Origin: an uncultured archaeon
GTDB taxonomy: Archaea > Aenigmatarchaeota > Aenigmatarchaeia > QMZP01
DNA: 59,633 bases
Reading direction: 5' to 3'
Assembly: GCA_964389315.1 (NCBI GenBank)
Contig: CAYMDJ010000002.1
Coordinates: 1 to 59,633 of the forward strand
The notes under the pieces were generated by a model. It was not told where the DNA came from, ran no database searches, and worked only from the letters and a program-made list of their open reading frames with translations. Shown piece by piece: positions 6,345-59,633 of this stretch (positions are counted from its first letter, which is position 1; the number at the start of each line of letters is the position of its first letter). The position numbers and the translations under genes are program-made.

Positions 6345-6372
6345 CCACTATTAAATAGTGACATGTGATTAT

Positions 6373-34347: not shown

Positions 34348-34715
34348 CCGATAATCTTCCTGATTCTGTTCAGCAGGTCAGCATTATCAAAAGGCTTCGT
34401 GATGTAGTCTGAAACCCCCATCTTCTTCAGGGTATCCTTTCCTGATTCAGAGAACTTCGCAACCGTGAGGAAGGCTACCTTGAGGTCCTTTGTTTCCGGG
34501 TTTGCCCTTATCTTCTCGCATACCTCCCTTCCGCTCATCCCGGGCATCATCATATCAAGAAGAACAAGGTCTGGCTTGGTTTTCTTCAGCTTCTCTAGGG
34601 CCTCCCTGCCGTTGCTGACCGCTATGACGTTATAGCCCTCGGCCCCAAGGATTGCCTTTATCAGCTCGAGGAGTGAAGACTCGTCATCCACTGCCATTAT
34701 GGTCTTTGACATCAT
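34344..34715 (-). CDS. stand-alone response-regulator receiver (CheY-like)
   Basis: TIMAVDDESS...DLVLLDMMMPGMSG...YITKPF, 123 aa, no output domain. A TATA-like TTTAAATAAA (minus sense, 34731-34741) lies just upstream. Confidence 0.9.
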   Translation of the reverse strand: MMSKTIMAVDDESSLLELIKAILGAEGYNVIAVSNGREALEKLKKTKPDLVLLDMMMPGMSGREVCEKIRANPETKDLKVAFLTVAKFSESGKDTLKKMGVSDYITKPFDNADLLNRIRKIIG

Positions 34716-34749
34716 TATATTTTGTTTATGTTTTATTTAAATCCGACAA

Positions 34750-34780
34750 GGCGTCCGTTTTGCGGCGTCTGTTTTATAAA
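34750..34780 (+). promoter_or_regulatory. direct repeat GGCGTCYGTTTT x2 overlapping the TATA-like box TTTTATAAA of the KaiC-like/LamG operon
   Basis: GGCGTCCGTTTT (34750-34761) and GGCGTCTGTTTT (34764-34775) are separated by 2 nt. The second runs into TTTTATAAA (34772-34780). Confidence 0.4.
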
Positions 34781-34822
34781 CCGGTTCTCCAATATATTAA
34801 TTACTATAGTAGTGGTGGTTCT

Positions 34823-39736: not shown

Positions 39737-40341
39737 CCCGGGGGCAGCTCGGGGATGTCAAAACCTGACATTCCGTAAGGCCATGTGGTTCCTGGATCAG
39801 GAACGATCTTCCCTGCTTCTGGAGTGCTCCTTTCACCCATAGCCGTAAGGTCCTTTGTTTCATCAGCAAACATCACGAGGTCGTCTATGAATTCATCAAT
39901 GGCTTCAGAAACCGCATCCGTTGAAATCATGTAAATGATTTTCCCCGGATTCCCCATCTTGACGCTGTTGGTGAACCTGAGGATTGATGCGGGGTCATTA
40001 TATCTAAGGAGGCATGATATGTCGTCAAAGACGAAGGCATCACACTTCTTCATCATCTTCAGTATTGCACCGGACATCTCATCCATTGCAGAGGGCGAGG
40101 ATATGTATACGCACCTGTCTGTTGATTCCTGGCTCGAATAGTGACTGCTCAGGGTGTCTATGAAGCACATCCCTTTTGCATCAATGCTGTTGTTCTTTAG
40201 CGCCTGTATCGCAGAAGAAACAGTATCGCTGAGGCACACGTAGCATATCCTATGATTCCTGAGCTTCTTGATGATGCCTGTTTTCTTGAGTTGCTCATCA
40301 GACTTCATTAGGAAAACAAAGAGCCCGTTCTTCTCAAACAT
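39733..40341 (-). CDS. KaiC/RecA-fold-like protein lacking a Walker A P-loop (paralog of 30124-30660)
   Basis: 202 aa. CYVCLSD..., NNSIDAKGMCFIDT, VYISSPSAMDEM, AFVFDDISCLL and DDLVMFADET match CYISLNK..., NNGVDSGNIIFIDA, IYVSSPTALTEI, VVLIDSISTLL and DDMSMFVDEI of the 30124 gene. There is no GxxGxGK[ST]. The minus-sense spacer upstream (40342-40388) carries AAAAATATTTAAG. Confidence 0.6.
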   Translation of the reverse strand: MFEKNGLFVFLMKSDEQLKKTGIIKKLRNHRICYVCLSDTVSSAIQALKNNSIDAKGMCFIDTLSSHYSSQESTDRCVYISSPSAMDEMSGAILKMMKKCDAFVFDDISCLLRYNDPASILRFTNSVKMGNPGKIIYMISTDAVSEAIDEFIDDLVMFADETKDLTAMGERSTPEAGKIVPDPGTTWPYGMSGFDIPELPPG

Positions 40342-46300: not shown

Positions 46301-46307
46301 TCTTCAT
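40389..46307 (-). CDS. giant surface protein (1,972 aa): N-terminal signal/anchor, sequon-dense beta-rich array, P/G linker, CARDB-like domains, helical stalk, TM, SHOCT-like cytoplasmic tail
   Basis: MKKRIGLVVILAIVLAGFILSNS at the N-terminus, with hundreds of residues of N-x-S/T-rich beta-type sequence. CARDB-type motifs are EVEPGDILNFELYVENKGDVDN and YVNVVVKNTGDSPATNVQL. The linker is APAPPPSGDEGGAPEEAGPGGGG, the stalk is ...LVRLKAKLRELKTRTENAK..., and the TM is LLPWWVILIIVFAAVIAVLVIF. The tail ends ...LENQYKSGIISKEAYESMKKRSEEKI.... The start directly follows the upstream stop (TAGATG at 46305-46310). Confidence 0.85.
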   Translation of the reverse strand: MKKRIGLVVILAIVLAGFILSNSFTRSENYDDVWWNSSWHYRIMFEVNHSAINRTDWPVEYQMNFTHLLENMSVPGTFDNLSARLVEYNGSDGSVLHELPVQFDPDGNYDASESATGDVVFILNGTMLSNNSNSRFFYLYFDTVENGQKEERTWNPSELGYNMSYTWDGEAFTINNTNYLFYFDTDGGENTSGLYRIYDIVWEEENFIYSTGNQRTREYLKFTNGSHNFTWYMNGNVTFTTGPVRITVTQQGEEIYWNEPSNETNETSTVKRYFFYPNIRWYRLEFNVTNTGTQPVNRSAELGAPRFDASLAYDTPGIFDQNKTDPASFLRVYSTTNPGHELGIILENESIPDFRVDNESNLDYVGINLSSVNLPPDSFLWLKSIFISGHSTRAPDIVYDVRDGILTPIDVAVSAAEKWVIESYPQANYTVYNRNETVLLWVNITVDGWNLTNHTNATLDMGTPSTADDLTVILYDDGDSGHGDQVAGDNVWSNIYILPNDSAEGEWNLTARIFNNDSYILNESYHTFNVTAQLYASLVINESTASGLPDREVNATLWLKNYRQDTNISNAEDVNCTYYHNDNPGDKTNVDNITDNMDGSYSINFTAPSELGLYYLNCTATKDGNNRTVYDNFAVEAPITNASVITSPLSKVLTNVTWYDNESFILTVTMSNIGNGTTYGTNMTVTVPQNFSSNETFYSCNDVLIDLNCVRYFNITALATSTNETYEFNITIDWTNPDDSTDYNYTLFNVTIAQNPIMLVDADNLSVRVGPGFEKQMGTINVNSTGNYRIDDVNFTVTGLDDFQFTFNPPGPISFINPGTDQDVTVTVNVSSSQTPGTYNGTLNVSASNYGFHIINLTVIVSGTNVSINVTPENFTTDIVNWYTSDSFNLSVNTTNIGTVTAFDTEINLSMNLNYFNATNGTSYDCGNISVSSSCNVTYNFTVMNGTPAGNHTINVTVSWEEIDIGTVFNWSIVNITVTPNVTLEVDRTNITGSLEHGTSGSFGNVTILSAGNDIVYNVTLNMTGLESLSATLSSEGPHDLFTGQSQEILLNATIPFAYAPGTYNGTLNITSDNAENFSLNVSLTVPVNGSWYVNETYCEHSQSPDVGVACIVLINNTGNVLIGFNVTPAEVNHTNVSSTSFAIDSDDEYKLTFYYNVSGIAGQSTWTANYTINATNLSAEPDEIDVKITLSPYIKPLVDVEVIPDYTEQLGSVLIYSNVTAQSDRPILMPVNATVTMPDGTNDTVPMTRLYWQGCTGSGPGSTSCWYAYYPSTWGNTTYTGNYTAWVYAEDDLGENETGSDTFYVYTKLSPMMFTLSDEYSNQGYQGSVYYRAEDSSGEQNIGNVTVDVVIINPGNETFFNKSYLTESDGFIRNDYGGIYIDFPTYGYPAGNYTVIVNSTYYESSVGFFVNSTQNYTFTMVDHPPSYGIHADMRIYPLWYQNSIMKFVMWFTDSSGMLTDPDSISLNVLNPANNPYFSTTMASMTKESTGVYTYNYAMPPLAPVGIYEVSLNASIGGYQTVAYDYIRVSLGGPYDVGVNILNKEVEPGDILNFELYVENKGDVDNLDVLIEYWVSGGGQTWDYQHFSANIGAGENKTFDASTDPSVSAYIFTSQPPGTYTLNVKVTYNSINNLYATANETFDVIGEAPAPPPSGDEGGAPEEAGPGGGGQARLNITEYDREVGVEVGVIRYVNVVVKNTGDSPATNVQLTARSTEENWFIIEPRNIGTLAAGDEATFTMKILIPFGIESGQHEVMITATSNQSDDSEVFTLFIFTSRKELIDFELVRLKAKLRELKTRTENAKASGYEVSPVEDLIKDIENEIELAENYLQKELYDAALDAVYNAWQLIREAEDLLDDILSRGLLPWWVILIIVFAAVIAVLVIFMRRMTKNLKILLRGRLSEARQVAGAVKPSSDVDTMRTEKAKNQRMLRLLENQYKSGIISKEAYESMKKRSEEKIGDIDKKIRDALK

Positions 46308-48086
46308 CTATCCACCCAAAAGTTTTTTCGTCTTCTCATACGCCCCCTTGCTTATCAGGCCGCTACTGAAGGATTCCTCAAGCCCCCTGAGCATCATCTC
46401 CTTCTTCGAGAGCCCTGGCTTCTCCGTTTCCTCCTTCTCCGGTCGTTTTGATTCCTTTTTGCCCGGTTTTCTTGCAATTTCCCTTTCCAGCTCTTTTGTC
46501 CCTTCGCTTGTCTCCGCAGGCTCCTCCCTGCCCTTTTCTGCAGCGGGTTTCTCCGCAGGCTCCCTTTCCTGCTCGCCTGTTTCCGCAGGCTCTGTTGAGG
46601 GAGCGGGTGCGGAAATCCTTCCTTCAGGGACGGATGCGCCACTCCTCTCCTCTGATATATTCTTCTCAATCTCCCTCAGCCTGTCCAGGTTCAGCTTCTT
46701 TGCCTTCTCATATTCATCCTTCTTCAGCGTCCCTGCCTTGAGCTGCTCCTCCATCATCTCGAGGACGGTATTTATCTCATCCTTCTGCTCCTGGTACTTG
46801 ACGAGCCTGGGCGATTCCTGCATGCCTGTGTCTGCCATGGCAGACATCCTTGTCTCAAGGTTGTCCCTGAGCTCCTCGAGCTCCTCCTTTGTCACGAGGC
46901 CCGACATCTTGGTGTTGACTTCGTCCATGCCCTTCATCATCTCCTGTATGAGCTCGCTGGCGGTGTCCTGCTTTGCCTTGTATAGCATGAAGCTCTCAAG
47001 CCTCTTGTTCAGTTCCATGAATATTCCGTCAATCTTGTCCCCCACCCTCTTTATCCTCTTCTCTGTCTCGTCGACCATTATCATCCTGCTGGCTATGTTC
47101 TTGCTGAACTCTACCACCTTCTCGAGGCTTCCCATCTCGCTGAGAACGTCCTCTATCAGGCCCACCTTCTTTATGATGACCGAGGAGATTTCATCGAGCT
47201 TCTCTATCTTGGCCTCGTTCTGCTTTATGCCGGAGTCCAGCTTCGTGAGTAGCTTGGTGAACCTCTCCGGCTTGAGCATGGCCATGGTTTCTGTTATATC
47301 GTCTGTCTTGATTGAAACGTCGCTTAGCCTGCCATCTATGCTCGCGGTGCTGGATCTAAGCTCGCCCAGCTCCTCCATTATCCGTCTCACTGTGTCTGCG
47401 TTGCCGTCCTTCTCATCCTTCACGGCGTCTATGAATGCCTTGAGCTTCTCGAGCTGGACCTGCATCTTCTCGACCCTGGGCAGGACCTCTATTCCAGAGG
47501 GCCTTATCTCGTTCACGAGCTTCGTTATGATGTTCTTTATGTCAGAGGTGTCAACCGTTCCTACTGCTGCCATGTCCTTTGAAATCTTCTTTGCCGGCTC
47601 GGTTGGTGCAGCAGGTTCAGCGGAGGAAATTTCGTCCCCGCCAAGACCCTCGCCCGGACCGGGTTGTGACATGGGGATTATGGGCTCATCATACTTCTCC
47701 TCTTTCGGTTCCTTCGTAGGCTCGCCTGTCTCCGCAGGTTCGGCCTTCCTGGTCTTCTTCGCCCTCTTTGCCTTTCCTTTGCCTTTCTTCGGTTTCTCCG
47801 CTGGTTCCTTTGCATGTTCGCCTGTCTCCTTTGCCTGTTCGCCTGTCTCCTTTGCCTGTTCGCCTGTCTCCGCGGGTTCTGGGGCAGACTTTCCAATCTC
47901 CTCCTCAAGTTTCGCTATATCTGACCTGATTTCTTCGAGCTTCTTCTGGTTCTTTCCCTTCACCTCGCTGTAATGCTCCTCGCTTATGCTTGCCTCGTTG
48001 TATGCCTCTTCCAGGGAGGACAGGAGCATCTCTATATCCTCCCTGTGCTTCTGCAGTTCAACGAGTTTTTCCTTCTTTCCGGGCAT
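46308..48086 (-). CDS. cytoplasmic coiled-coil protein (592 aa) with acidic PAETGE repeats and SHOCT-like motifs
   Basis: No signal peptide or TM. Long heptad-like stretches are flanked by E/K/P/A-rich low-complexity segments (PAETGEQAKETGEQAKETGEHAKE; PAETGEQEREPAEKPAAEK). The motif G-h-I/L-S-K-x-x-Y-E occurs at the N-terminus, mid-protein and C-terminus. A perfect SD AGGAGGTG lies 5 nt upstream of the ATG. Confidence 0.8.
   Translation of the reverse strand: MPGKKEKLVELQKHREDIEMLLSSLEEAYNEASISEEHYSEVKGKNQKKLEEIRSDIAKLEEEIGKSAPEPAETGEQAKETGEQAKETGEHAKEPAEKPKKGKGKAKRAKKTRKAEPAETGEPTKEPKEEKYDEPIIPMSQPGPGEGLGGDEISSAEPAAPTEPAKKISKDMAAVGTVDTSDIKNIITKLVNEIRPSGIEVLPRVEKMQVQLEKLKAFIDAVKDEKDGNADTVRRIMEELGELRSSTASIDGRLSDVSIKTDDITETMAMLKPERFTKLLTKLDSGIKQNEAKIEKLDEISSVIIKKVGLIEDVLSEMGSLEKVVEFSKNIASRMIMVDETEKRIKRVGDKIDGIFMELNKRLESFMLYKAKQDTASELIQEMMKGMDEVNTKMSGLVTKEELEELRDNLETRMSAMADTGMQESPRLVKYQEQKDEINTVLEMMEEQLKAGTLKKDEYEKAKKLNLDRLREIEKNISEERSGASVPEGRISAPAPSTEPAETGEQEREPAEKPAAEKGREEPAETSEGTKELEREIARKPGKKESKRPEKEETEKPGLSKKEMMLRGLEESFSSGLISKGAYEKTKKLLGG
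47809..47871. repeat. 3 x 21-bp in-frame tandem repeat (encodes ETGEQAK/ETGEHAK heptads)
   Basis: The units are TTTGCATGTTCGCCTGTCTCC, TTTGCCTGTTCGCCTGTCTCC and TTTGCCTGTTCGCCTGTCTCC on the plus strand. They lie within the 592-aa gene. Confidence 0.85.
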
Positions 48087-48099: not shown

Positions 48100-51000
48100 T
48101 TATTTGACTGTTCCTCCGATTTTCCGGATTCTGTTCTTGACAGAATCCATATATGTCTTGGCCATCGTGAACATCGTCTGCCTGACCTTGTCCTTGGCCA
48201 GCTTCAACTCAAACTCGATGTCAGTCACGTCAAGTCCCCTTGACTTCAGCCTTGCAATCTCCATCTCTATGTTATTGAGCTCGGTGTCATACTTGACGTA
48301 GGTGTTTATCTCTACCTCTGACAATCTTCCCACGTCATGCAGAAGCGGCCTGAACTCTATGAAATAGGGCTTTCCGTGATTGAACTCTGCGTTCTGGAAC
48401 ATTCCCGTTCCTGTCTTGAGCTTGGTGATGGTTGAAGCATACTCTGAGCCGTATTTCTGCTTGACCCTCCTTATGTCGCCGGTGTATTTCGTCCTCATCT
48501 GTATCTCGTTCGATATGTTGGCCCTGATGGCTCCCTTGAAGTCCATGAGGACCTGCGATATCAGCCAGATACCAATCCCCCACTTTCTGAATTCTCTGCA
48601 TCCTCTCTCCAGTGCGACGTAGCCGCCCTTTCCGCCGTACTTCGGGAGCAGCCTGTGGACCTCGTCATAGACTACGAAGAGCTTGAGCTCCCTTGCCTCT
48701 GGCCAGGGTATCTTGAACATGTCGCTTATCGTCCTCCTCACGAAGGTGTCAAGCTGCGCGGGATCCATGCTGTCTATCAGCACGACCGTTATCTCGCCAG
48801 GGGTCATGTAGTTCCTGACGTCTATGCTGGTCTCGGGGTCGGTTATCTTGATTAGCCTTCCGGGGAACCTCCTGGCATCCGTTGGCTTCAGACCGAAGTT
48901 GGGGTAGAGGTCAAGCATCTTCTTGTCCCTGCAGGGCCTCAGGAATCCTGTCCACTGCGCAGTGGGGTCAAAGACTATGATGGGAATCTTCCTCTTCAGC
49001 AATTCCTCCACCGCAATCATCGCAGAGACGGTCTTTCCTGCCCCCGTAGAGCCTGCGGATATTCCGTGGGTCTGGAGCTGCCTTACGTCCATGTATGCAT
49101 TGACGTCTGTCTCGGCAATCCTGCCTATCAGGAATGAATCTTTCCCGGGCTGCGGAAGCTTCTTCATATCCATCGGGAAGATGTATCTTGATTTCTTCTT
49201 GTGCTTCTCCTTCCACCATCTCCAGCCATAGAACCCGCCGTATACGGCGGGAATCATCATGAACATTATAAGATAGGTCACCCATGACATGAAGACGTTC
49301 CTCAGGGCAACCAGGAGGCCTGGAAGCTCGGTGACCTCGAAGGAGTCTGAGGCGAAGGCGTATTTCGTCCCGTACCAGTAAGAGACATTGGCCTCTATGA
49401 CATACCTGTCGTAGGGGATGTCATCCGGGATGGTGATGTTCCTCCTGAATGCATACTTCTGGTCAACCCCCACGGTTTCCTTCATGGTGGTGATGACCTC
49501 GTCTGTGTTGAGGTTCTTTATCTTGTATTCGGCTACTATGTCCTCGACTGTCGCGGTCTCCCCCATGTTGACGAGCGTGACCTCGAACCTGAACTCCTCT
49601 CCCGGAGCGACCGCCTTCGTGAGGGCCTTTATGGCAACGTCAAGTAGGGGTATCGGGACCTGGACCACGTTTATAGTGACCGGCGTCCTGTACGTCTTGT
49701 TGAGCTCCACCAGGTGGGTTATTATGTCGCCCGTGTATATCCCCGGTGCCGTATTGGGCATGCTGTAGAGCTTTATCTTTATCTGCTCTGTCTGGCCGCC
49801 GGCAACCGTTATCAGCGGCCTCTCTATGGTTACCATGTCCCATATGGGCGAGCCTGCCTGCACGCTGGTCTCAACTGTTATGGGGGTATTCCTGTTGTTC
49901 CTGATTTCCATGGAGTGTATCTCATAATCCCCCTGGTCAAGGACGACGTATATCAGCGTTGAATCTATCTCTATCTGTGGCGCCCCTGCCGCCGCTCCTG
50001 CTGCTGCCCCGGCACCTGCCCCGGCACCTCCGGCAGCTCCTCCACCCCCGCCGCCCTCTGCCGGTGGGGGAGGCTCAGGGATGATTATCGGGCAGTCAGA
50101 CGGGCAGTTGGCGTTCGATTCTCCGTAATCGTCCTCGCAGTTGTTGTCGCCGCATATGAACTGCGCGAGCACGAATGCCCCTGTCATCGTGGTCGAGTTT
50201 GCGGTCACGATTCCGGATGATGTGTTGACGTCCGTGTCGAGCCTCGTCCATCCGGTCGCGTTGGTGCACCCTGACAGCAGAATCCATGAAGAGCACCTGT
50301 ATATCCCGAGCGACGTGAGGGAGAAGTCGCTCGTCTTGCAGGTGCCTGCTGTGTAGCATTCCTCAGAGGTGAAGTTCATCGTGCCGTAGGTGTAGTTGAG
50401 CTGGCTAGTGTTTATCCAGACCCCCTTGAGGGATTTGGTCGGAAGGCGGACGTTGGGTATCTCGCCGAACATGTAGGGGTTGTAGACGTCGTCCTGGAGG
50501 TAGACGCTGTAAAGGGTCGCCGTCTCGTCCAGGAAGTCTGTCCTTATGTCATAGGTCCTGAGGTCAATGGTCTCGTTGTAGTATCCACCGAGCGTGGCGT
50601 TGCTGGCAAAGCTGAAAAGCTCGGTATTCGTTCCCGGAACGAAGAGAGTGAAATTGACGCTTATCGGGGGCTTGTGTATCTTCTCCTCGTCCCTGGTGTA
50701 GCCCTGGAATATGACAGCCGGGTAAATCTCAAAGGACGTGTTGGTCGAGTTGCAGTTACCCGAATAGTCGCACGCAGTGGTGCTTGCGTAATGGACCCCC
50801 ACCTGACTCGTGTTGGAGAAGAACTGGCGGAATACATAGACGTCATCCACCATATAGAGCTGTGTCATGTTAAAGCTTTGTGTTGAGTTGTCAGGGTATG
50901 TTATGGTCAGGGTCGCGTTCTTCACCCCGCCCGTATCGGTCGCGTTCGTTATTATCTCGACTGTGGAGTTTGACGGGACCTTCGCTGGGACGAACAGGCT

Positions 51001-54000
51001 GATAAGGGGCGGGAACGGGTCCTGGTATATTATGGCCTTTATTTCGTAGTCCGAGAGCACGAGGCTGTAGTTAGTGTATATCACCGTGAGGTTTATGTCA
51101 TATCCCCTTGCGAGGGATATGTTGGGGGCCGTTATGTTCATCCCCCAGAGGTTGGTGGTGTTGGAGAACGTCAGGTTATTGAATGTCATCTGCTGGGACC
51201 ACGTCGCATTACTCATAACAAGGGTGAAGTTGAGGTAGTTGCTGTCGTTCAGCGGAAGGCCTGCATAGGTCACGTTGGCATAAACCCAGACGCTCTGGCC
51301 GGGGGTTATGTTTATGGTCGGGCTTGTCTCAGTGGGACTGGTTATGTTGAGGGAATAGGGGTGAACGCGGAGGTAGACCGTCGTGTATCTGGTCGGCGGG
51401 TCTGCGCTCACGTTCTGGGTGGTTATCAGGCCGGAGTAGTTGGTGAGCTGGGTGACGAAGGGTGCGGTGTAGTTTATCCTCAGGGTCTCGTAGTTCCCTA
51501 TCGGCATGTAGAGCTTTGTTGCGTTGATTCCTATGAACGGATAGATGTCGCCTGACCTGACGACGTCCAGGATTATGTATGCGTTTCCTATGTTGTGTAT
51601 CTCTATGTATCCGAAGGTTCCCTCTGTCTCGTGGCTTACCGTGACGTCAATCAGTGACGGGACCTGCGACCATGAGAGGTTCAGCGGGACCATTATTATC
51701 AGGACGACCGTATCCGTTGATTCTCCTGATGCATTGGCCTCGAGGGTCCCCAGATACTGGCCTGTCTCATACATTAGCGGGACCTCAACCTGAACTTCTA
51801 CGTCTTCGGAGTTGCCTGGCTCCATGAGAGAGATGTTCACGGGATAGAACGTCTGGCTGAATTCCGAGCAGACCGTGCCTGAAAGGCAGTGGAAGGTTAT
51901 GTTGGTCGCGTTGGCGTTTCCTATCGACTGGATTGTCATGGTGTTGTTGTATGAGTTCCCGCCCATTATCACGTAGGAGAGGTTGTCCTGGACTATATCT
52001 ATCACGGGATTCGGGAGGACGTTCACTATTATGGAGGTTAGGTTGCTTCCCTCTGATGAGTCAAGGTTGGTCCAGTTGGAGCTTATGTTGACGTAATACT
52101 CGCCCGGGGCGGTCCCGTTGACTATGAATATGGAAGCCTCTCCTGTGCCGGAGTTGTATTTCATTATCGTCCCCACGGAGAATGCTGAGGGTATGGAAGT
52201 CCAGCCAGACGGGACGCTTATGTTAGCGTTCACGCTGTATGCACGCGCGTATTCTGGCGATAGGGTGAAGTTGACGTCAAAGGAGCTTCCTGTGTAGAGC
52301 ATCACGTCCGAGATGTTTATGTCTGTCACGTTGGGCTCTATTAGCATGGGCGTGTTCGCGGCGCCGAGGACAGGGACCTTTGCAGTGCATCCCCAGAGCC
52401 CTGCAGTGTCGTTCGCGCAGACACTTATGTTGTGATAGCCTCCTGAGGTTCCGTTATATGTTACGTTGTATACCGGCTTCAGGGAGGCGTTCATGTTCTG
52501 CTTCAGGATGGTCCCGTTCGGCAGGGTCACGTTTATCCAGGCCGTGCTCACATCGAAGTTGTCCGTTATGTGCGCGGATACGTTCACGACCTCGAATCCC
52601 ACCTCGAATATCATTGGGGTTATGTTGACCTGGGTTATGTTGGGAGGAATGTCGGTGACGTTAAGGTAGAAGTCCGTGCCGTATTCGTTGGGTGTTGCTG
52701 TCGTGTTCCTTATAAGGAGGTTCACGTAATACAGGCCCTGCTGCTGGCCGGTGAGGATCTGGTAGTATACGGAAACGTTCCTTCTCGTCTGCTTGTCAAG
52801 GTCAAAGTAGCTCGGTTCCGTGTAGACCAGGTCTGTCCCGTTGCCGAGCTTGTATACCCTGAAGGCGGTCTTCCTGTTGCCCGTGTTGAACACGCTTATG
52901 TTGCCTATGAAGCCCGAGGTGTTGAGGAGGGCGAGGACCTGGGTGAAGCTGGTTGGCGTCCTCCACCATGAGGTGTTGAGCGGGACCGTCAGGTTCAGCA
53001 TCGAATCGTCTATTCCGGCGTTGCTCGTGGTTGCCCTCAGGTATGTCCAGTAGTCATCGGGGTCCTGGCCCGCGGGTATGATTGCGGTTAGCTGGACAGT
53101 GAAGTTGTATCCTGCTGCAAGGAAGCCCTGGGTCGAGGGTATTATCGTTATCTCACACTCCGGGCATTCTGTCGCAAAGTTGCCTGCCGCGTCAACGAGC
53201 GCAAGCTCTATGTCCTCCACGGCATCGTTGCCCGAGGATATGACCGTCACCGTTCCTATATAGGTTGTCCTGTCATGTGGAGTGGTGTTGTGCAGGTAGC
53301 TGGGATTTATCTCCACCACGGGGTTGGATGAGACATCCAACATCGTGTAGTTGCTGCTCATGTTGGTCGTAAGTTCGGGATTGGTCCATGTGGCGTTGAC
53401 CCACAGCTTTATCAGCATCGGGGGCGTTCCCTCAGGGACCCTCACGTGGAGGTCCCACGTGCAGTTATCCCAGGGGGCCATGTCACCGCACGACTGGAAG
53501 GTATCGTTAATCTCTATGGTGTCGTTGGGCTCATCGTAAGCTATCAGCTCGACATCGTACATGTTAGCAGGGCCCTCGCTGGTGAAGTTGACGACGAGGT
53601 CCACGTCGAAGTCGTTGGTCTGGGTTATCCCATTGACAAGAATCTCGTAGGTAGTATAGACCCTGCCCCATGACTTGCCCCAGACAGAGAGGTTGCCTGC
53701 ATAGCTGTAGTTCTTGTTGTATTCCCAGCCGAGGTCGCGCGCCCAGACCGTCACGGCGTGCTCACCATCTATCAGAGGGATATAGGTGAGCCTGTAAAGG
53801 TCGCCTGTGGGGGTCATGTTGGTCATGGTGTGGTTGTGGATGCTGCCGTTCGGGAGCTCTATCTGCGCCCAGACCAGGTCGACCCCAATGTCATCTGTCA
53901 CGTTCGCCGTTATGTTGGTGTAGTTCAGGTTGGCTTCGAGGCTCGAGTTAGGAATCGCTGATACGTTGGTTATGACAGGAGGTGTCACGTCGCGGACATA

Positions 54001-57000
54001 GAGGCTGCCCTCTGCTTCAGGCGTGTTAACGATTATCTCCATCTCAGGCGCGTCCGTTATGTTGCACTTGAAGGTTATGTTGCCCTTCTGCGTCGGCTCG
54101 AAGGTGTAGTTGGTATAGCCGGTGCTGTTGGTGGTGAAGTTGTCTATGAACTGGTAAGGCTGGCTATACCAGTGATACCAGAGGTCAACGCCATAGTTCG
54201 GAATGCCGTTCAGGGATTCTGAGTCGATGACCCTGCACATGGTGGTGAAATTGATAGGGTATGGCAGCTGAGTCCCGTTCACCGGATACTTCCACTGGAC
54301 TATGGAGAGGCCTGAAACTATTATCGTGACAAAATCCTCGCCGGACGCGTAATAGGTCTTGCTGGCATTGACCTTTATCGTCCTGTTGCCGGTTGCCTGG
54401 TAACTCAGGTTGAGAGGGATTGACATCCCGTTGCCCAGGAAGCCTGACTCGTTCCACCAGTTCGGTGTCGTGCTCACCTGGCTGCCAGCCTCATCCGTCA
54501 CGTTGACCGTGAGCGTTATCGTCTCGTTCTTTGCATGGGCAGTGTTGTTCTCAGGGGACGTTATGTTCAGGACGAGAACCCCCCTCGCCTCCAGGTATGT
54601 TTCATAGGTATCGGAGTCCTCGAGCCCTGCCTTTGTGGCATTCATGTATACGGTGTAGTTGCCTGGTGAGATTGTGTCAGTGACGTTGTAGGTGATGTTG
54701 CAGTCTCCGATGGAGTTGGTTATGCAGAAGTCAATGAATCCGCTGGAGTTCCAGAATGTCACGTTCGCTCCCGCTGCATTGCCAACGTTTGCATCCTTCA
54801 CGTGCACGCCTATCTCTGTCTCGTGCGGGTCGTAGCTGTCGTTCCTGTATATCCAGCCCTCTGAAAGGTCAATGTCATCTATCTTGAGCTGCCTCCTGAC
54901 CCTTATTATCGAGGTCCTGTAGCTCATGTTCGCAGTGGTGTTGTAATACAGGGAAACGTCGTTGCCTATCGTGCAGGTTATGTTGTAATAGTCCGGGTCC
55001 TCCAGGCCGGTGTTCCAGTCCCAGGTCGCCTCACCGGCGGAGCTCGTATCGTCGCTGTCCTGGTATGTCCCGTTCTTGTAGAACGAGACGTTGTATCCTG
55101 TTATTGGCTGGTCGGTGTTGTTGTCGCGCACGTAACACCTGACAGTGACCCACGTCCCGGCATCAATCTCTGTCCCGTTGGCCGGGAGTATGTTGTAAAC
55201 CCAGCTCCACCCGTAGATAAGGATGCTCGTCTGGTTGTTTCCGAGGTCGTAATACTGCCTCGTTGCATTGGTGTTTATCGTCGCCGGGCCGAGGCCGTAG
55301 CTGGGCGGGACCAGCCAGGTGGAGTTATACCAGCCCTGGCTTCCGTCCGTCGTATCATTGAGCAGGACCCAGGTCCCGTTGAACCAGTATGCATGGGCAT
55401 CGTCTATCCGGTCACCGCAGTCGTCCCCTACGGTGAGGTTGAGGGTCTCTGTAACGTTCCTGTTGAGGACCTGCCCTGTGGAGGGGGCGGTGGTGTTGAT
55501 ATAGAGCTGGCCGTAGACCGTGAGCTGGCGCGCGCTCGTGTTGAGCGGCTGGTAGCAGGAGTCCCAGGTCCCTCCTATCCAGTTCTGGACTCCCACGTAG
55601 GAGTCGCAGTCAGGCGGGTAGTTGACCGAGCACCTGCCGCTGTTCGCAGAGGTGCAGTCCATCTCCACCGTGTAGTTGGTCTGATTCTCTGTTATCCATA
55701 CCTTTCCGTCCGTCCCGTTGGGATACTCGAGTCTTTCGGCATCCAGGTCCCTTATTATGAATTCAAGGAAGGCTGTCCCTCCCTCTCTCCTCACGGTCGC
55801 GTTGGAAGCGCCAAGCTGGAAGGTCACGTTGTCTGCCTCTATGGTGAAGTTCAGCGGGGAGGTCTCATCAGAGAAGTTGAACTGGTCTATTATATGGTAT
55901 TTATATTGATTGACCCCCATGTCAGAGCACGAGAACCACTGGTAGAAGTATATGTTCCTGTTGCTTCCCACGAGGTTGTTCCTGTAAGTCTGGTTTATCA
56001 GGGTCCAGTTAGTCCAGTTTCCTTCTGACTGGTTCCACATCCTCTTCCACAGGGTTATGTTGTTGTAGTTTCCGTCGCTGTCCGTTGCAAGGACATAGAA
56101 TTCAAAGGTTTCTCCCCACCCTCCCAAGGACGGGTAAACGCTCGGGCTCGTGACGGTTGGCGGATATCCCAGGAAGAACTTGTCGGTGTAGAAGGTGAAG
56201 TTATCCCCGTAGAAGGTCTTTGTGGTTTTCATCCCGAGGCTATACCACCCGGTTGAACGCTCCGTGTCCAGCCACGTGTAGTTGTACCATCCGCCGCCCT
56301 CGGACCACTGGCCGCTCGTGTTGTGCGCAGGCAGGTAGTTCGTCCTGTTGTATTGGTTCGGGAACTTGTATATGTTGTAGAGGATGTTGACCCCCTCCAC
56401 AAGCGAGCAGTCGTCCTCGACTGTTCCTGCGAAAGGAACGGGCTGTCCCCATTCGTAACCGTCGCCATCAGGATACCATATAACGGGCTTCAGGTTGCTC
56501 TGGACCTCGAGGTCGAACGCGCTCGAGTTCTTCGAGCTGAAGCATGTGTCGTTGTCTATCCCTCCTACACCACCCTTCCATTTCTGGATGCCCACGGAAT
56601 AGTTGCAGTCAGGTTCCGGGGCCTCTGTCGGGAAGATGTATTTTATGTGCGAGCTTGCGTTTGACACGACGGGGTTTCCTATGTCCCACGAGGAGGAGTT
56701 GGATGCGTTCTTTGTCACCCAGAAGGTGGCGTTTATGTTCTCCCCTGCTATCGTGTTCCTGTCAGTGTCCCATATGAGGAGGGCAAGCTCTGTCGCGTTT
56801 GTTCCGTTCCTCCATACGGTGTTTCCATTACCGTAATAGTATTGGACCTCGACATCGTCCTTCTCTATGGTGAAGTTGGCAGGTGAAGTTTCGTTCCAGA
56901 GCGCAGGAATCCTGGTGTCCTCTGCCCGCAAATAATATTCCCAGGTCCCTATGTTGTAGCAGTCCTCATCCCGCCAGGAAAGTATAACATTCTGGGACTG

Positions 57001-59633
57001 GGGTCCCTCCACCATGGTGCTGTTCTTTGGCGAGCCCCAGGTCCCGATGCCATATTCCTTTATGTAAAGGTATATGGTGACGTTGTCAAGGTCCTCGTCA
57101 GTGGCAGTCACGTTGAAATAGAACCTCTCCCCCCAACCTCCCGGGTCTGTCATCGGGTATGAGTCGTTGAGGACGGGCTTTGTGCTTATGAAGAAGTGGT
57201 CTGCCTGGTAGTCGCTTCCGTTATAGTAATAGTCCTTGCTGGAGTTGGAGGTGGTTGAATACCACCTTGCCGGCTTCCCTGCGGTGTCCCACTCGCATTC
57301 ATAGTAACCGAAGGTCTCGTTCGTTACAGGTGTGCAACCGAATTCCGTTCCGCTGTCATTGTTAGTCACGGAAAGGGAGACGTTCACGTCATCCCTGTAG
57401 GAATCGCAGTCATCATCCACGTATATCCTGAGGGTCACGTTCTCTATTATCCTCTCGAAATCGTCCCCTATGCTGGGTTCCTGTATGTCGTCGAACAGGG
57501 CTCCCCATATCCCTATATAGTATTCGGGCGTGACGTTGTTGTAGTAGCAGGTGTCTGTTATACGGGCGTAGAGCGTCTGGTTCCCGGGGATATAGACAGG
57601 AACGTCACACGCGGGCGCGAAGTGTATGTCAGTATAGCCAGACGAGTTGGTCGTGTTGAGCGTCCCGTAATCATACTCAGAGCCGTTGTATGTCACGTAG
57701 AGCGTAACGTTGTATCCCTGTGAAACAAGGACGTTCTTTATGGTATCAGTGACGTTGAAGGTTATCACGCCGGGAGTGCCTGAACGGACCACAGAAGCTG
57801 GTGAGGAGACATACCGGATTATGGCGCTGTCTGCCGTTATGTTCGGCCCTGATATGTTGCTGGTGTAGTTGGTGTTGGTCCCGTCCATTATCTTGAAGTG
57901 GAACAGGTTGTCGTCACCTATGTGGCTGCAGTCAAAGCTTCCAACCGTCAGGTTGCACCAGTCCCTTCCGCCTATTATGGTGGTGTTGTTCATCAGCTGG
58001 TAGGACGACCCTCCGTTGGTTGATACGTAGAGCTCGCAGGTGATGTTGTCCTGCTGGGTATCCCATATATACGTTGAGTATTCGAACACGTCCCCCCAGC
58101 CGCTCTGGTTAGGTGTCAGTCCGGTCTGGTTTATGGTAGGCGGCGTATTCACAAGGAATACCCAATCGTCCCAGACAGTGGAATTACTGTTGTACCATGC
58201 CTTGCTGGAATTCAGCCTTATGTCCCAGAACCCACCCATGTGGAAAACAGTGGCCCAGGTGTAGTTATACCACCCAGAGCCATTCACGTCCGGGGGGTAT
58301 GATTCCCAGTCACCGAGCGGCGAGCCGAACGACATGTCTACGGATACAGAATCCTGCAAATCGCTCATCCCGCAATCCGTGGTTATATTGAAGCTCGTGA
58401 ACAGAGGATCTCCCACTGCCGTCACGTTTCCTTCTTCCGGAAGGTATATCTGGTTCTTGAGCTGGCCTATTATGCTCATGTTGTAGCTGCTGCCGAAGGC
58501 AGGAGTGTAATAGCATTCGTCTTCGGACGTTATGTTGGCCCTGAACCTATGTGTGCCTGTCGTGTAGAGGGGGGTGCACACAGGGTCAAAATAGATACCC
58601 AGGTCACCGCTGGAATTTGTCTGATTGAGCGTTCCTGAATCCCAGTCATTCAGATCAGTTCCGTTGAGGTTGACGAATATGGTTCCGTTTATTCCCCCGC
58701 TTGTTATGATGCCACTGCCGTTGTCAAGATCTATGAAGTAGAATGCGAGGTATGTTGTTTCAGAACCCTCCCTGTTGACCATGGAGTTTATGCTAAAGCT
58801 CCTTGGTATCGCGGTGAGCCTGTCCTTCAGCATGTCAAAGCTTCTCGTGTCTGTCGTGGACGTGTCGCCCCACATGTCAGTCGCATTGATCTTGAAGTAG
58901 TTCGTTCCCACGTCATTGCACTCAAAGCTCATTGTCAGGTTGTACTCCTGCTCTCCACTGGGCGTTAGCGTGAGGTTCGTAACAAGTGTCCAGTTGTCTG
59001 TTGAGTTGTAGGACTTCCATAGATAGACGTCATTTGAATCACCGAGCGGAATCTCACCATCCTTCAGGGTGATGTTGAAGTTGTGGATGGAGCCCCATGC
59101 ATACGTGGGGATTGCCGAATGCCACACCGGTCCCCAGTCAAGCTGCGGAACCTCGCTCAGCCAGAAGGAATCGTTGTCCTTGTACGTTCCCGAGGAGTTG
59201 TAGTAATTCTTACTCGCGGAGACAGTGGTGTTGAAATCCCCGAGACAGAAGTCTCCCCACACGGCTGTTTCGGTTGTGCTGAAATTGCAGTTATACCAGC
59301 CACCGGTCTCGTCCTCGGTGTTACCCTGCGTGCATGAAAACGCGCACGTGACCTCGTTCTCTGCGCCGAACTGCACGGTGGCTCCTGCAACATCTCCTGC
59401 GGAACCGCTGCATTCGTCGCTGACGTACGCCCTTACAGTGATATTGTCAATCCCTCTCCTGTAATGCTCGCCGTCCGGTATGTCCATCGCTATTTCAAGC
59501 GGGTCTGTCCAGACATTGTACTCAAAATTCTCTGATATGTTGTCCTGGTAGCAGTCTGAATCAACCAGGGATGCCTTCCATTCCTGAGGGCCGGTGCTGT
59601 ATTTTGGTGAGCATCCTGGGTCAAATATACTAT
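48100..59633 (-). CDS. giant surface protein (>3,843 aa, 5' end beyond the window) with C-terminal TM helix and cytoplasmic HerA/FtsK-type (DUF87-like) P-loop ATPase domain
   Basis: The listed ORF starts at an internal Met (59487). I translated 59488-59633 in the same frame and found no stop (...SIFDPGCSPKYSTGPQEWKASLVDSDCYQDNISENFEYNVWTDPLEIA-MDIPDG...), so the gene continues past the window. More than 3,300 residues are N-x-S/T-rich beta-type modules, followed by a Cys motif, a poly-Gly/Ala linker and CARDB-like domains. The TM is at 49222-49293, followed by KEKHKKKSR. See the ATPase domain feature for its motifs. Confidence 0.9.
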   Translation of the reverse strand, partial: SIFDPGCSPKYSTGPQEWKASLVDSDCYQDNISENFEYNVWTDPLEIAMDIPDGEHYRRGIDNITVRAYVSDECSGSAGDVAGATVQFGAENEVTCAFSCTQGNTEDETGGWYNCNFSTTETAVWGDFCLGDFNTTVSASKNYYNSSGTYKDNDSFWLSEVPQLDWGPVWHSAIPTYAWGSIHNFNITLKDGEIPLGDSNDVYLWKSYNSTDNWTLVTNLTLTPSGEQEYNLTMSFECNDVGTNYFKINATDMWGDTSTTDTRSFDMLKDRLTAIPRSFSINSMVNREGSETTYLAFYFIDLDNGSGIITSGGINGTIFVNLNGTDLNDWDSGTLNQTNSSGDLGIYFDPVCTPLYTTGTHRFRANITSEDECYYTPAFGSSYNMSIIGQLKNQIYLPEEGNVTAVGDPLFTSFNITTDCGMSDLQDSVSVDMSFGSPLGDWESYPPDVNGSGWYNYTWATVFHMGGFWDIRLNSSKAWYNSNSTVWDDWVFLVNTPPTINQTGLTPNQSGWGDVFEYSTYIWDTQQDNITCELYVSTNGGSSYQLMNNTTIIGGRDWCNLTVGSFDCSHIGDDNLFHFKIMDGTNTNYTSNISGPNITADSAIIRYVSSPASVVRSGTPGVITFNVTDTIKNVLVSQGYNVTLYVTYNGSEYDYGTLNTTNSSGYTDIHFAPACDVPVYIPGNQTLYARITDTCYYNNVTPEYYIGIWGALFDDIQEPSIGDDFERIIENVTLRIYVDDDCDSYRDDVNVSLSVTNNDSGTEFGCTPVTNETFGYYECEWDTAGKPARWYSTTSNSSKDYYYNGSDYQADHFFISTKPVLNDSYPMTDPGGWGERFYFNVTATDEDLDNVTIYLYIKEYGIGTWGSPKNSTMVEGPQSQNVILSWRDEDCYNIGTWEYYLRAEDTRIPALWNETSPANFTIEKDDVEVQYYYGNGNTVWRNGTNATELALLIWDTDRNTIAGENINATFWVTKNASNSSSWDIGNPVVSNASSHIKYIFPTEAPEPDCNYSVGIQKWKGGVGGIDNDTCFSSKNSSAFDLEVQSNLKPVIWYPDGDGYEWGQPVPFAGTVEDDCSLVEGVNILYNIYKFPNQYNRTNYLPAHNTSGQWSEGGGWYNYTWLDTERSTGWYSLGMKTTKTFYGDNFTFYTDKFFLGYPPTVTSPSVYPSLGGWGETFEFYVLATDSDGNYNNITLWKRMWNQSEGNWTNWTLINQTYRNNLVGSNRNIYFYQWFSCSDMGVNQYKYHIIDQFNFSDETSPLNFTIEADNVTFQLGASNATVRREGGTAFLEFIIRDLDAERLEYPNGTDGKVWITENQTNYTVEMDCTSANSGRCSVNYPPDCDSYVGVQNWIGGTWDSCYQPLNTSARQLTVYGQLYINTTAPSTGQVLNRNVTETLNLTVGDDCGDRIDDAHAYWFNGTWVLLNDTTDGSQGWYNSTWLVPPSYGLGPATINTNATRQYYDLGNNQTSILIYGWSWVYNILPANGTEIDAGTWVTVRCYVRDNNTDQPITGYNVSFYKNGTYQDSDDTSSAGEATWDWNTGLEDPDYYNITCTIGNDVSLYYNTTANMSYRTSIIRVRRQLKIDDIDLSEGWIYRNDSYDPHETEIGVHVKDANVGNAAGANVTFWNSSGFIDFCITNSIGDCNITYNVTDTISPGNYTVYMNATKAGLEDSDTYETYLEARGVLVLNITSPENNTAHAKNETITLTVNVTDEAGSQVSTTPNWWNESGFLGNGMSIPLNLSYQATGNRTIKVNASKTYYASGEDFVTIIVSGLSIVQWKYPVNGTQLPYPINFTTMCRVIDSESLNGIPNYGVDLWYHWYSQPYQFIDNFTTNSTGYTNYTFEPTQKGNITFKCNITDAPEMEIIVNTPEAEGSLYVRDVTPPVITNVSAIPNSSLEANLNYTNITANVTDDIGVDLVWAQIELPNGSIHNHTMTNMTPTGDLYRLTYIPLIDGEHAVTVWARDLGWEYNKNYSYAGNLSVWGKSWGRVYTTYEILVNGITQTNDFDVDLVVNFTSEGPANMYDVELIAYDEPNDTIEINDTFQSCGDMAPWDNCTWDLHVRVPEGTPPMLIKLWVNATWTNPELTTNMSSNYTMLDVSSNPVVEINPSYLHNTTPHDRTTYIGTVTVISSGNDAVEDIELALVDAAGNFATECPECEITIIPSTQGFLAAGYNFTVQLTAIIPAGQDPDDYWTYLRATTSNAGIDDSMLNLTVPLNTSWWRTPTSFTQVLALLNTSGFIGNISVFNTGNRKTAFRVYKLGNGTDLVYTEPSYFDLDKQTRRNVSVYYQILTGQQQGLYYVNLLIRNTTATPNEYGTDFYLNVTDIPPNITQVNITPMIFEVGFEVVNVSAHITDNFDVSTAWINVTLPNGTILKQNMNASLKPVYNVTYNGTSGGYHNISVCANDTAGLWGCTAKVPVLGAANTPMLIEPNVTDINISDVMLYTGSSFDVNFTLSPEYARAYSVNANISVPSGWTSIPSAFSVGTIMKYNSGTGEASIFIVNGTAPGEYYVNISSNWTNLDSSEGSNLTSIIVNVLPNPVIDIVQDNLSYVIMGGNSYNNTMTIQSIGNANATNITFHCLSGTVCSEFSQTFYPVNISLMEPGNSEDVEVQVEVPLMYETGQYLGTLEANASGESTDTVVLIIMVPLNLSWSQVPSLIDVTVSHETEGTFGYIEIHNIGNAYIILDVVRSGDIYPFIGINATKLYMPIGNYETLRINYTAPFVTQLTNYSGLITTQNVSADPPTRYTTVYLRVHPYSLNITSPTETSPTINITPGQSVWVYANVTYAGLPLNDSNYLNFTLVMSNATWSQQMTFNNLTFSNTTNLWGMNITAPNISLARGYDINLTVIYTNYSLVLSDYEIKAIIYQDPFPPLISLFVPAKVPSNSTVEIITNATDTGGVKNATLTITYPDNSTQSFNMTQLYMVDDVYVFRQFFSNTSQVGVHYASTTACDYSGNCNSTNTSFEIYPAVIFQGYTRDEEKIHKPPISVNFTLFVPGTNTELFSFASNATLGGYYNETIDLRTYDIRTDFLDETATLYSVYLQDDVYNPYMFGEIPNVRLPTKSLKGVWINTSQLNYTYGTMNFTSEECYTAGTCKTSDFSLTSLGIYRCSSWILLSGCTNATGWTRLDTDVNTSSGIVTANSTTMTGAFVLAQFICGDNNCEDDYGESNANCPSDCPIIIPEPPPPAEGGGGGGAAGGAGAGAGAAAGAAAGAPQIEIDSTLIYVVLDQGDYEIHSMEIRNNRNTPITVETSVQAGSPIWDMVTIERPLITVAGGQTEQIKIKLYSMPNTAPGIYTGDIITHLVELNKTYRTPVTINVVQVPIPLLDVAIKALTKAVAPGEEFRFEVTLVNMGETATVEDIVAEYKIKNLNTDEVITTMKETVGVDQKYAFRRNITIPDDIPYDRYVIEANVSYWYGTKYAFASDSFEVTELPGLLVALRNVFMSWVTYLIMFMMIPAVYGGFYGWRWWKEKHKKKSRYIFPMDMKKLPQPGKDSFLIGRIAETDVNAYMDVRQLQTHGISAGSTGAGKTVSAMIAVEELLKRKIPIIVFDPTAQWTGFLRPCRDKKMLDLYPNFGLKPTDARRFPGRLIKITDPETSIDVRNYMTPGEITVVLIDSMDPAQLDTFVRRTISDMFKIPWPEARELKLFVVYDEVHRLLPKYGGKGGYVALERGCREFRKWGIGIWLISQVLMDFKGAIRANISNEIQMRTKYTGDIRRVKQKYGSEYASTITKLKTGTGMFQNAEFNHGKPYFIEFRPLLHDVGRLSEVEINTYVKYDTELNNIEMEIARLKSRGLDVTDIEFELKLAKDKVRQTMFTMAKTYMDSVKNRIRKIGGTVK
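48103..49200 (-). other. HerA/FtsK-superfamily ATPase domain (C-terminal, cytoplasmic) of the giant protein
   Basis: Walker A HGISAGSTGAGKT (GSTGAGKT = 49030-49053) is followed by IIVFDPTAQW. Walker B is LFVVYDEVHRLLP (48643-48681). The REFRKWGIGIWLISQ...NEIQMRT block resembles the HerA/DUF87 RKyGvgL..SQ..ir block. A C-terminal helical tail follows. Confidence 0.75.

Follow-up and report, generated by a model that had tools for sequence, protein, structure and literature searches.

The giant gene that closes a 59,633-nucleotide (nt) stretch of DNA from an uncultured Aenigmatarchaeota archaeon (assembly GCA_964389315.1, contig CAYMDJ010000002.1; the window, below, means this whole stretch) encodes what sequence comparison identifies as an Aenigmarchaeota/DPANN member of the known SPEARE protein family. 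Its cytoplasmic domain is a HerA-clade motor with intact catalytic motifs, but a non-canonical HerA, and the gene is followed by two partner genes with which it is predicted to be co-transcribed. We consider the best explanation of this locus, with a probability of roughly 55%, to be a SPEARE-family giant that carries a HerA motor and acts with its co-transcribed partners as a hexameric translocase at the site of host contact. The SPEARE fusion (PMC6642349) and the ATPase nature of the cytoplasmic domain (PMC10266531) are already known. The window is a piece of archaeal chromosome with genes for diphthamide synthase, HMG-CoA reductase, AglB/STT3, SecD/F and phosphoenolpyruvate synthase-type enzymes; tRNA and Rfam scans of the window gave no match.

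SPEARE proteins were described from Nanohaloarchaeota by Hamm et al. 2019 (PMC6642349) as mostly extracytoplasmic proteins of up to 8,553 amino acids (aa) with a transmembrane (TM) segment near the C-terminus. In the type protein, NAR1_1133 of Ca. Nanohaloarchaeum antarcticus (5,998 aa), the TM segment occupies residues 5611-5633 and the cytoplasmic part residues 5634-5998 (365 aa); this cytoplasmic part is the family's most conserved region and was read as a restriction enzyme. The same study reported at least one laminin-G domain along with other adhesion domains and, for the type protein, regions resembling proteases and toxins. It also described two short versions (655 and 717 aa), found similar sequences among Woesearchaeota, Aenigmarchaeota, Micrarchaeota and Altiarchaeales, and gave proteomic evidence that the Nha. 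antarcticus protein is made. Reva et al. 2023 (PMC10266531) re-analyzed these proteins together with their own 8,880- and 9,409-aa examples, the latter being SVXNc_0300 of Ca. Nanohalococcus occultus, found no nuclease or protease, described a "VirB4/TraG-like ATPase" with a coiled coil after it, and put forward the idea of an injection straw resembling a type IV secretion system (T4SS). A SPEARE-type protein of 12,127 aa has been reported from EX4484-52. Using the C-terminus of the type protein given in Supplementary Information Fig. S18 of Hamm et al. (PMC6642349), we found by BLASTP that the window protein aligns over the last 626 aa (E=3e-106, 33% identity), an alignment spanning both membrane-proximal beta-sandwich domains, the TM helix, the ATPase and the coiled coil. 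This match, the same layout and a poly-Gly hinge at the equivalent position place the window protein in the SPEARE family.

The reading frame is free of stop codons from 48100 to 59631 of the minus strand, and the other two minus-strand frames over the gene hold 277 and 132 stops. Its first ATG lies at 59487 with no stop upstream, so that the frame leaves the window; an initial annotation, made from the letters of the DNA, had put the protein at more than 3,843 aa on these grounds, and the translation bears this out. Window residue 3 aligns to residue 294 of one relative (P0129) and residue 413 of another (P0138), both themselves N-terminally truncated, and the giant protein must therefore comprise at least ~4,250 aa, with at least ~400 residues beyond the window. 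The nearest genome (L007) encodes a protein 86% identical over the full length, and its contig stops at almost the same place. A homologue search with the first 644 window residues returned only five partial matches, which did not recover the N-terminus, and a single-protein scan of metagenome contigs for the N-terminus gave no match.

Two independent sequence signals set the predicted topology. The 3,449 residues ahead of the TM helix hold 204 N-x-S/T sequons, against 56 +/- 6 in composition-preserving shuffles, and the 372 residues that follow it hold one; among the window's proteins, cytoplasmic ones carry 0.2-0.6 sequons per 100 aa and predicted surface proteins 5-6. The TM helix is the sole segment of the giant protein over the hydropathy threshold, and Lys/Arg clusters occupy the position after it in all homologues compared. 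Because of this sequon asymmetry and the positive-inside cluster, the ATPase is predicted to be cytoplasmic and the sequon-rich region to lie outside. An extracellular N-glycosylated bulk, a single hydrophobic helix and the cluster KEKHKKKSR had all been proposed in the initial annotation; the sequon excess upholds the first, the cluster was located at 49186-49212, and the helix stands as the only hydrophobic segment, although its end had been set at 49293, 9 nt too far, the true span being 49222-49284. The window also encodes an AglB/STT3 oligosaccharyltransferase (6358-8697, plus strand) and further sequon-rich surface proteins, one of 1,349 aa with laminin-G_3 and NEW3 matches and several TM helices (35687-39736, plus strand) and one of 1,056 aa that has a signal anchor and, at its C-terminus, a TM helix (10047-13217, plus strand). 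These genes fit a heavily N-glycosylated envelope.

The visible ectodomain is modular. Self-BLAST revealed tandem modules at offsets of ~335 aa (24-30% identity, E down to 1e-24), and their alignment (A3) contains 33 invariant columns, including conserved Cys and a GWG motif. An AlphaFold2 model of one 335-aa module, computed from an alignment of the four paralogous copies only, had a predicted local distance difference test score (pLDDT) of 41 and was all-beta and otherwise unusable. Pfam gave weak NEW3/Rib matches to the visible ectodomain and almost nothing else, with no match to laminin-G, protease-like or WD40/PQQ domains within its 3,449 residues, and a PDB sequence search with the ectodomain gave no match. 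Close relatives are collinear with the window protein across all 3,843 residues (35-41% identity). All complete relatives can be aligned to window residues ~1880-3838 (27-35% identity); in distant complete members the alignment is limited to these membrane-proximal ~2,000 residues and the distal part is different. This pattern, which we did not find in the SPEARE papers (PMC6642349, PMC10266531), is that of a giant ectodomain built from a conserved stalk and a variable, repeat-expanded tip.

Residue 3220 to the end (~620 aa) forms a core unit, 46% identical to short paralogues of 722-728 aa in which nothing precedes it but a signal peptide, a small Cys-rich knob and a Pro/Gly (P/G) linker. An equivalent of the Cys-rich motif that ends the long ectodomain precedes the hinge in two short paralogues (P0042, P0053) and in P0011, and the position of the hinge is taken by a poly-Gly run in the Nha. 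antarcticus SPEARE and by P/G linkers in the short forms. AlphaFold2 modeled the last 516 residues with a mean pLDDT of 88.6 as a beta-sandwich, a long helix, a compact RecA-like core and a coiled coil. In this model, the second beta-sandwich domain comprises strands between residues 3 and 106 (pLDDT 81-92), the TM segment lies inside a continuous 43-residue helix (111-153), and the coiled-coil tail consists of helices 445-470, 476-490 and 494-515 (pLDDT ~90).

Several lines of evidence assign the cytoplasmic domain to the HerA clade. Pfam DUF87 scored 30.8 bits against a cut-off of 23.2, and HerA_C 26 bits against a cut-off of 22 (35.4 and 33.4 bits, respectively, on the 516-aa piece). Among 32 aligned relatives, DUF87 was matched in all 32 and HerA_C in 30; weak matches to T4SS-DNA_transf (15/32), TrwB (9/32) and AAA_10 (8/32) were also seen, as were FtsK_SpoIIIE and ResIII in minorities. 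The ResIII matches account for the domain's first publication as a "type III restriction enzyme". PDB sequence searches with the ATPase returned HerA proteins and the HerA-like YjgR only, and the block LERGCREFRKWGIGIWLISQ aligns to Thermococcus HerA with REFRKWG opposite REGRKFG. In Foldseek comparisons of the model with the PDB, ranks 1-36 were all HerA (4d2i, 9x1l, and the anti-phage HerA-Sir2 and HerA-DUF4297 complexes), with E-values of about 1e-13 to 1e-10 overall and a best value of 4e-13. The first non-HerA match was the conjugative coupling protein TcpA at rank 37 (E ~4e-10), and no VirB4 structure was among the top 50. Invariant in the 32 relatives are the GxxGxGK of Walker A with its Lys, the Walker B DE, R352 and R355 of REFRKWG, and Q366 (SQ); the REFRKWG Arg we take to be a trans (arginine) finger.

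These results agree with the initial annotation on the motifs and the class of this domain. The Walker A, IIVFDPTAQW, Walker B and RKWGIGIWLISQ motifs it had named are exact in the translated frame, Walker A and Walker B at the positions it had given, and its assignment to HerA/DUF87-type ATPases of the FtsK-HerA superfamily is supported by DUF87 and HerA_C scores above the gathering cut-offs for the residues after the TM helix and by a confident model whose RecA-like core is nearest HerA. The uninterrupted frame likewise sustains its description of a giant sequon-rich region joined to the ATPase through one TM helix. Reading the domain structurally as a HerA ATPase is more accurate than its original published annotation as a restriction enzyme, and the domain is best labelled a motor of the HerA clade; it is not a restriction enzyme, nor a VirB4 in particular. 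It is non-canonical because Pfam, PDB and Foldseek all favor HerA while the HAS-barrel and a NurA-type neighbor are absent; NCBIfam HerA equivalogs score 15-23.5 bits against cut-offs of 800-970.

The breadth of the family was assessed by a profile scan of one genome per GTDB species, with locus-level analysis of the best 80. At least 592 relatives were confirmed among species representatives, nearly all DPANN; the best 80 of these are almost all labelled Aenigmatarchaeota, with a few labelled Micrarchaeota, Undinarchaeota, Woesearchaeota, Nanoarchaeia, Parvarchaeota, Altiarchaeota or Nanohalarchaeota. An exhaustive HMMER search with the last 1,200 residues yielded 1,647 clusters at 50% identity with E<=1e-3, of which 386 reached E<=1e-30, with lengths up to 7,878 aa and the ATPase module C-terminal in nearly all. 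Complete relatives with plausible signal peptides (P0143, P0144, P0146, P0147, P0151, P0228) span 4,619-7,878 aa. The fusion had been called very unusual; it is instead the normal form of a large, widespread and already published DPANN family, and the search for it in other genomes found it uninterrupted in dozens of independent assemblies. The giant gene is a near-universal, syntenic DPANN chromosomal gene that extends beyond nanohaloarchaea, and not a patchy island gene.

The idea that assembly or annotation has joined a separate ATPase gene to a giant surface protein draws on the nearest two database proteins, which were called as separate genes of 485-500 aa, one of them beside a gene of more than 4,020 aa. 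A separate ATPase gene in these close relatives was rejected, since one scaffold (L001) is broken by runs of N and the other gene (L002) begins at a contig edge; in L001 the giant frame continues through the Gly-rich hinge into the beta-sandwich domain ahead of the N gap. The frame was open to the locus or contig start in 74 of the best 80 loci, and across the full ~10 kilobases (kb) upstream of the ATPase in 43 of the 45 loci having that much DNA. Complete fused proteins of 4.6-7.9 thousand residues exist, and the same fusion occurs in published complete genomes. Six of the 80 loci have an upstream stop: four of these are giant-type and start mid-ectodomain without a signal peptide, and another (L056) has an N run in the frame. 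The four candidates for independent shorter architectures (L072, L066, L025, L047) were rejected on account of their mid-ectodomain starts and missing signal peptides, L025 being frameshift-like. The sole genuine short paralogue is a ~724-aa form with its own signal peptide (L084, L003-L005), and short and giant forms can share one metagenome-assembled genome (MAG), as in L036 and L084. Collectively, these data effectively refute an artefact.

Gene calls in the family are often broken, both by N runs (positions 9500-10000 of L001) and by frameshift-like stretches in a long-read MAG (positions 8261-8700 of L025). Protein databases consequently under-report the giant forms; the best 120 matches listed in a word-indexed protein search were all shorter than 800 aa. 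A different arrangement was seen in a distant MAG labelled 'bacterium' (L006, contig JAAGZO010000387.1), where two family ATPase genes of 764 and 1,653 aa, the longer carrying CarboxypepD_reg/PEGA-type domains, are flanked by unrelated genes for giant surface proteins, one exceeding 5,949 aa and the other 7,246 aa. Motor and giant surface proteins there appear as adjoining genes and not as one fusion.

Directly downstream of the giant gene lie two genes that complete a three-gene cassette, with intergenic gaps of 13 and 0 nt. The 592-aa product of the second gene has a coiled-coil middle, no TM helix and one sequon, and no Pfam or other family was found for it. The 1,972-aa product of the third gene has an N-terminal signal/anchor, 115 sequons, NEW3 and MG2-like matches, and a TM helix at residues 1869-1887 followed by an 85-aa cytoplasmic tail; a PDB sequence search with it gave no match. 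By tblastn, 81 of 86 loci have the coiled-coil gene downstream of the ATPase, short-paralogue loci included, and 75 of 86 have the ~2,000-aa gene, full length and at 30-46% identity. This conservation and the gaps of 13 and 0 nt link the partners functionally to the giant protein, and co-transcription of the three genes is predicted. The cassette is not mentioned in the SPEARE papers (PMC6642349, PMC10266531).

In the cytoplasmic tail of the 1,972-aa protein we noted a SHOCT-like motif, LENQYKSGIISKEAYESMKKR (40389-40650, minus strand), that scores 20 bits with Pfam SHOCT, below the cut-off of 27. Similar motifs are visible by eye at the N-terminus, middle and C-terminus of the 592-aa protein (46308-48086), for which Pfam gives nothing. 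The motif may be one of interaction shared by the two partner proteins.

From these features we infer that the most likely function of the giant protein would be that of a membrane-anchored hexameric translocase at the host-contact site. The initial annotation had offered two functional ideas, six giants assembled around a pore or an adhesin coupled to a DNA/protein translocase; both are reasonable as possibilities and agree with what the SPEARE papers (PMC6642349, PMC10266531) speculate. Its ectodomain would be exported through Sec and N-glycosylated, a signal peptide being seen only in complete relatives. FtsK/SpoIIIE and coupling proteins form rings on the cytoplasmic face of the membrane that move DNA or protein through it. 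Because membrane-anchored FtsK-HerA ATPases (FtsK/SpoIIIE, coupling proteins, CedB/CedD) work as rings, the HerA-type domain would most likely also assemble as a hexameric ring under the membrane. In such a hexamer, six TM helices and as many ectodomains would come together as a single stalk at the host contact, where ATP hydrolysis would move a polymer across the symbiont membrane, with the coiled-coil partner and the second surface protein as putative scaffold or channel accessories. The most attractive substrate would be host DNA or other nucleic acid taken in as a nucleotide source, because DPANN cells lack nucleotide synthesis, as reported in the papers on the YN1 attachment organelle and on cryo-electron tomography (cryo-ET) of Micrarchaeota. 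Those two papers make no mention of HerA or ATPases, and a literature search on DUF87 in DPANN found no paper.

A number of observations weigh against a translocase. With a single TM helix from each protomer, the bundle would be a thin one of six helices, and the cassette showed no polytopic channel protein of the VirB6, CedA or FtsK type, which leaves the passage of DNA or protein unaccounted for. The HAS-barrel is absent, the P-loop core in the AlphaFold2 model being preceded by the TM helix and ~30 residues, and no NurA-like nuclease is at hand, NurA, Mre11 and Rad50 domains not being found in the neighboring genes. The N-terminus, signal peptide and distal tip of the giant protein fall outside the window. 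Moreover, ectodomain peptides and TM/cytoplasmic peptides of SPEARE were recovered in different size fractions (Hamm 2019, PMC6642349); the two halves may be separated after synthesis, which would weaken direct mechanical coupling.

The missing channel and single TM helix are also what speak for an adhesin or envelope scaffold, in which the ATPase, acting from inside the cell, would govern how the surface array is assembled, clustered, put under tension or turned over, with no substrate being translocated. A coiled-coil protein and a second giant surface protein as partners suggest a lattice or scaffold, and adhesins typically combine a conserved stalk with a distal part that varies. We nevertheless regard a scaffold as unlikely, since strict conservation extends to the catalytic and arginine-finger motifs that are typical for ring translocases and, to our knowledge, every characterised membrane-anchored FtsK-HerA ATPase (FtsK, SpoIIIE, VirD4, EssC, CedB) moves DNA or protein. 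Defense against viruses, by a surface sensor coupled to a HerA-type ATPase in the manner of HerA-Sir2 or HerA-DUF4297, is suggested by PADLOC matches of the giant protein to HerA models (E=9e-11) and mad8 (5e-9) and by the many anti-phage HerA complexes among the top structural matches. The PADLOC matches are expected from shared HerA ancestry, however, and we rate this reading as very improbable: PADLOC found nothing in the genes adjoining the giant, no effector (Sir2, DUF4297 or nuclease) was found in the cassette or window, and the gene belongs to the syntenic DPANN chromosome.

Export, and not import, is the essence of the published proposal for the family, a T4SS-like 'straw' that delivers effectors into the host, with a VirB4/TraG-like ATPase and an ectodomain that binds the host (Reva 2023, PMC10266531). 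The weak T4SS-DNA_transf, TrwB and AAA_10 matches among relatives and the presence of TcpA among the structural matches are in keeping with it. Nonetheless, the window protein has no Pfam match at E<=0.01 to the VirB4 N-terminal domain (PF03135), AAA_10, T4SS-DNA_transf or any other T4SS family, and HerA was best in Foldseek with VirB4 absent from the top 50. The window cassette lacks a VirB4 N-terminal domain, VirB6/VirB2-like genes and a second VirB4-type ATPase, the downstream gene encoding a coiled-coil protein, and no T4SS-like gene was found among the window genes in Pfam scans. An injection straw thus seems doubtful at this locus, and we continue to favor a hexameric translocase.

Features of the giant gene and its two partners. 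Residue numbers refer to the visible part of the giant protein.
Feature	Position	Strand	Basis or remark
Giant SPEARE-type gene, 3' part	48100..59633	-	3,843 codons, then stop 48100-48102; 5' end past window edge
Predicted extracellular region, residues 1-3449	49285..59631	-	Sequon-dense, Cys-containing, predicted all-beta
Four tandem ~335-aa modules, residues 3-347, 348-670, 671-1005 and 1006-1339; partial fifth after	55615..59625	-	Self-BLAST
Duplicated ~440-aa module, residues ~1870-2340 and ~2313-2780	51292..54024	-	Self-BLAST; within conserved membrane-proximal ~2,000 residues
Cys-rich motif CGDNNCEDDYGESNANCPSDC, end of long ectodomain	50092..50154	-	
Pro/Gly/Ala low-complexity hinge PEPPPPAEGGGGGGAAGGAGAGAGAAAGAAAGAPQ	49975..50079	-	
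Two membrane-proximal beta-sandwich domains, residues ~3220-3440	49312..49974	-	AlphaFold2; alignment with SPEARE and 722-728-aa forms
Single TM helix WVTYLIMFMMIPAVYGGFYGW, residues 3450-3470	49222..49284	-	Hydropathy
Positive-inside cluster KEKHKKKSR	49186..49212	-	
HerA-type P-loop ATPase core, residues ~3483-3770	48322..49185	-	Pfam, PDB sequence matches, Foldseek
Walker A GSTGAGKT	49030-49053	-	Exact
IIVFDPTAQW	48952-48981	-	Exact
Walker B LFVVYDEVH	48655-48681	-	Exact
REFRKWG/SQ block RKWGIGIWLISQ	48553-48588	-	Exact
C-terminal three-helix coiled-coil tail, residues ~3772-3842	48106..48318	-	AlphaFold2; aligns with SPEARE C-terminus
Cassette gene 2, 592 aa, cytoplasmic coiled-coil protein with K/E/P-rich low-complexity ends	46308..48086	-	Starts 13 nt past giant stop
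Cassette gene 3, 1,972 aa, sequon-rich membrane protein	40389..46307	-	Abuts gene 2

Beside the cassette is a gene for a 202-aa protein (39733-40341, minus strand) with no family match and a homologue only in the near-identical L007, and a KaiC/RecA-type ATPase gene (34652-35674, plus strand) has a homologue beside the cassette in L008 and L010 (61-64% identity). Two overlapping long genes of 1,711 aa (20118-25253, minus strand) and 836 aa (25250-27760, minus strand) encode proteins with no TM helix, almost no sequons and weak coiled-coil-type Pfam matches only (DUF7310), which look like giant cytoplasmic coiled-coil proteins; a partial homologue of the 836-aa gene (~140 aa, 37.5% identity) lies at the end of L011. 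The short-paralogue loci L003-L005 have a conserved neighborhood of their own, with four small genes upstream (~180, 194, 49 and 300 aa) and, downstream, the coiled-coil gene, a 306-344-aa gene and a ParA/MinD ATPase gene, a prepilin peptidase gene (Peptidase_A24) lying a few kb off.

DPANN archaea are tiny symbionts that need host nucleotides, lipids and amino acids, and SPEARE-type proteins are the most conspicuous candidates for cell-cell transfer. According to cryo-ET work on cultivated DPANN, it has yet to be confirmed which molecules make up the nanotube apparatus that connects the cells. It is a distant prospect, and one we would put forward only speculatively, that the three-gene cassette is the molecular core of this conduit or attachment apparatus between DPANN and host, its HerA ring pulling host nucleic acid or another polymer through a stalk of six ectodomains. 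If so, the cassette would be a DPANN-wide feeding machine and not a lineage-specific adhesin. What the locus adds to earlier work is the breadth of the family beyond nanohaloarchaea, the HerA assignment, two partner genes, and an ectodomain conserved in its proximal and variable in its distal part. The cassette and the HerA assignment sharpen hypotheses on DPANN feeding and establish no new kind of system. As targets for structural and biochemical studies, they single out the ATPase domain in soluble form, the coiled-coil partner and the cytoplasmic tail of the 1,972-aa protein.

Among other FtsK-HerA systems, TcpA, TrwB/VirD4 and FtsK/SpoIIIE resemble the window protein in having a membrane anchor followed by an FtsK-HerA-superfamily motor, hexameric in these proteins, on the cytoplasmic face. 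They differ in having 2-5 TM helices and no giant ectodomain, and in docking on a T4SS or acting at septa; Pfam families of coupling proteins or FtsK were not matched by the window protein at E<=0.01. The crenarchaeal Ced system offers another parallel, as CedB and CedD, without which Sulfolobales do not import DNA (PMC11868833), are HerA-clade ATPases with a TM anchor, archaeal like the window protein and located at the membrane during cell-cell contact. The Ced ATPases, however, have a VirB4-like N-terminal domain and no large ectodomain, and act with polytopic CedA/CedE and the CedA1 pilin, homologues of which were not found in the window cassette; the window ATPase scores 21.8 bits with the NCBIfam CedD model, whose cut-off is 600.

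HerA itself (4d2i of S. solfataricus, 9x1l of T. kodakarensis and the bacterial anti-phage HerA proteins) is the best sequence-profile and structural match and shares Walker A, Walker B and the REGRKxG-type motif. In contrast to HerA, the window ATPase has a TM helix in place of the N-terminal HAS-barrel, is membrane-anchored and fused to an extracellular giant, has no NurA, Sir2 or DUF4297 partner at its locus, and reaches 23.5 bits against an NCBIfam equivalog cut-off of 800. The SPEARE proteins of nanohaloarchaea differ from the window protein in that the window genome belongs to another phylum (Aenigmarchaeota-type) and that laminin-G, protease-like and WD40/PQQ domains were not detected in the 3,449 ectodomain residues visible here. 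Downstream, the nanohaloarchaeal gene is followed by a second VirB4-type ATPase gene (PMC10266531), whereas the window gene is followed by the coiled-coil and ~2,000-aa NEW3/MG2 genes. The order of parts is common to both, namely a giant ectodomain, a poly-Gly hinge, two beta-sandwich domains, one TM helix near the C-terminus, a conserved P-loop domain of ~365-375 aa and a terminal coiled coil, and short paralogues of ~650-730 aa occur in both.

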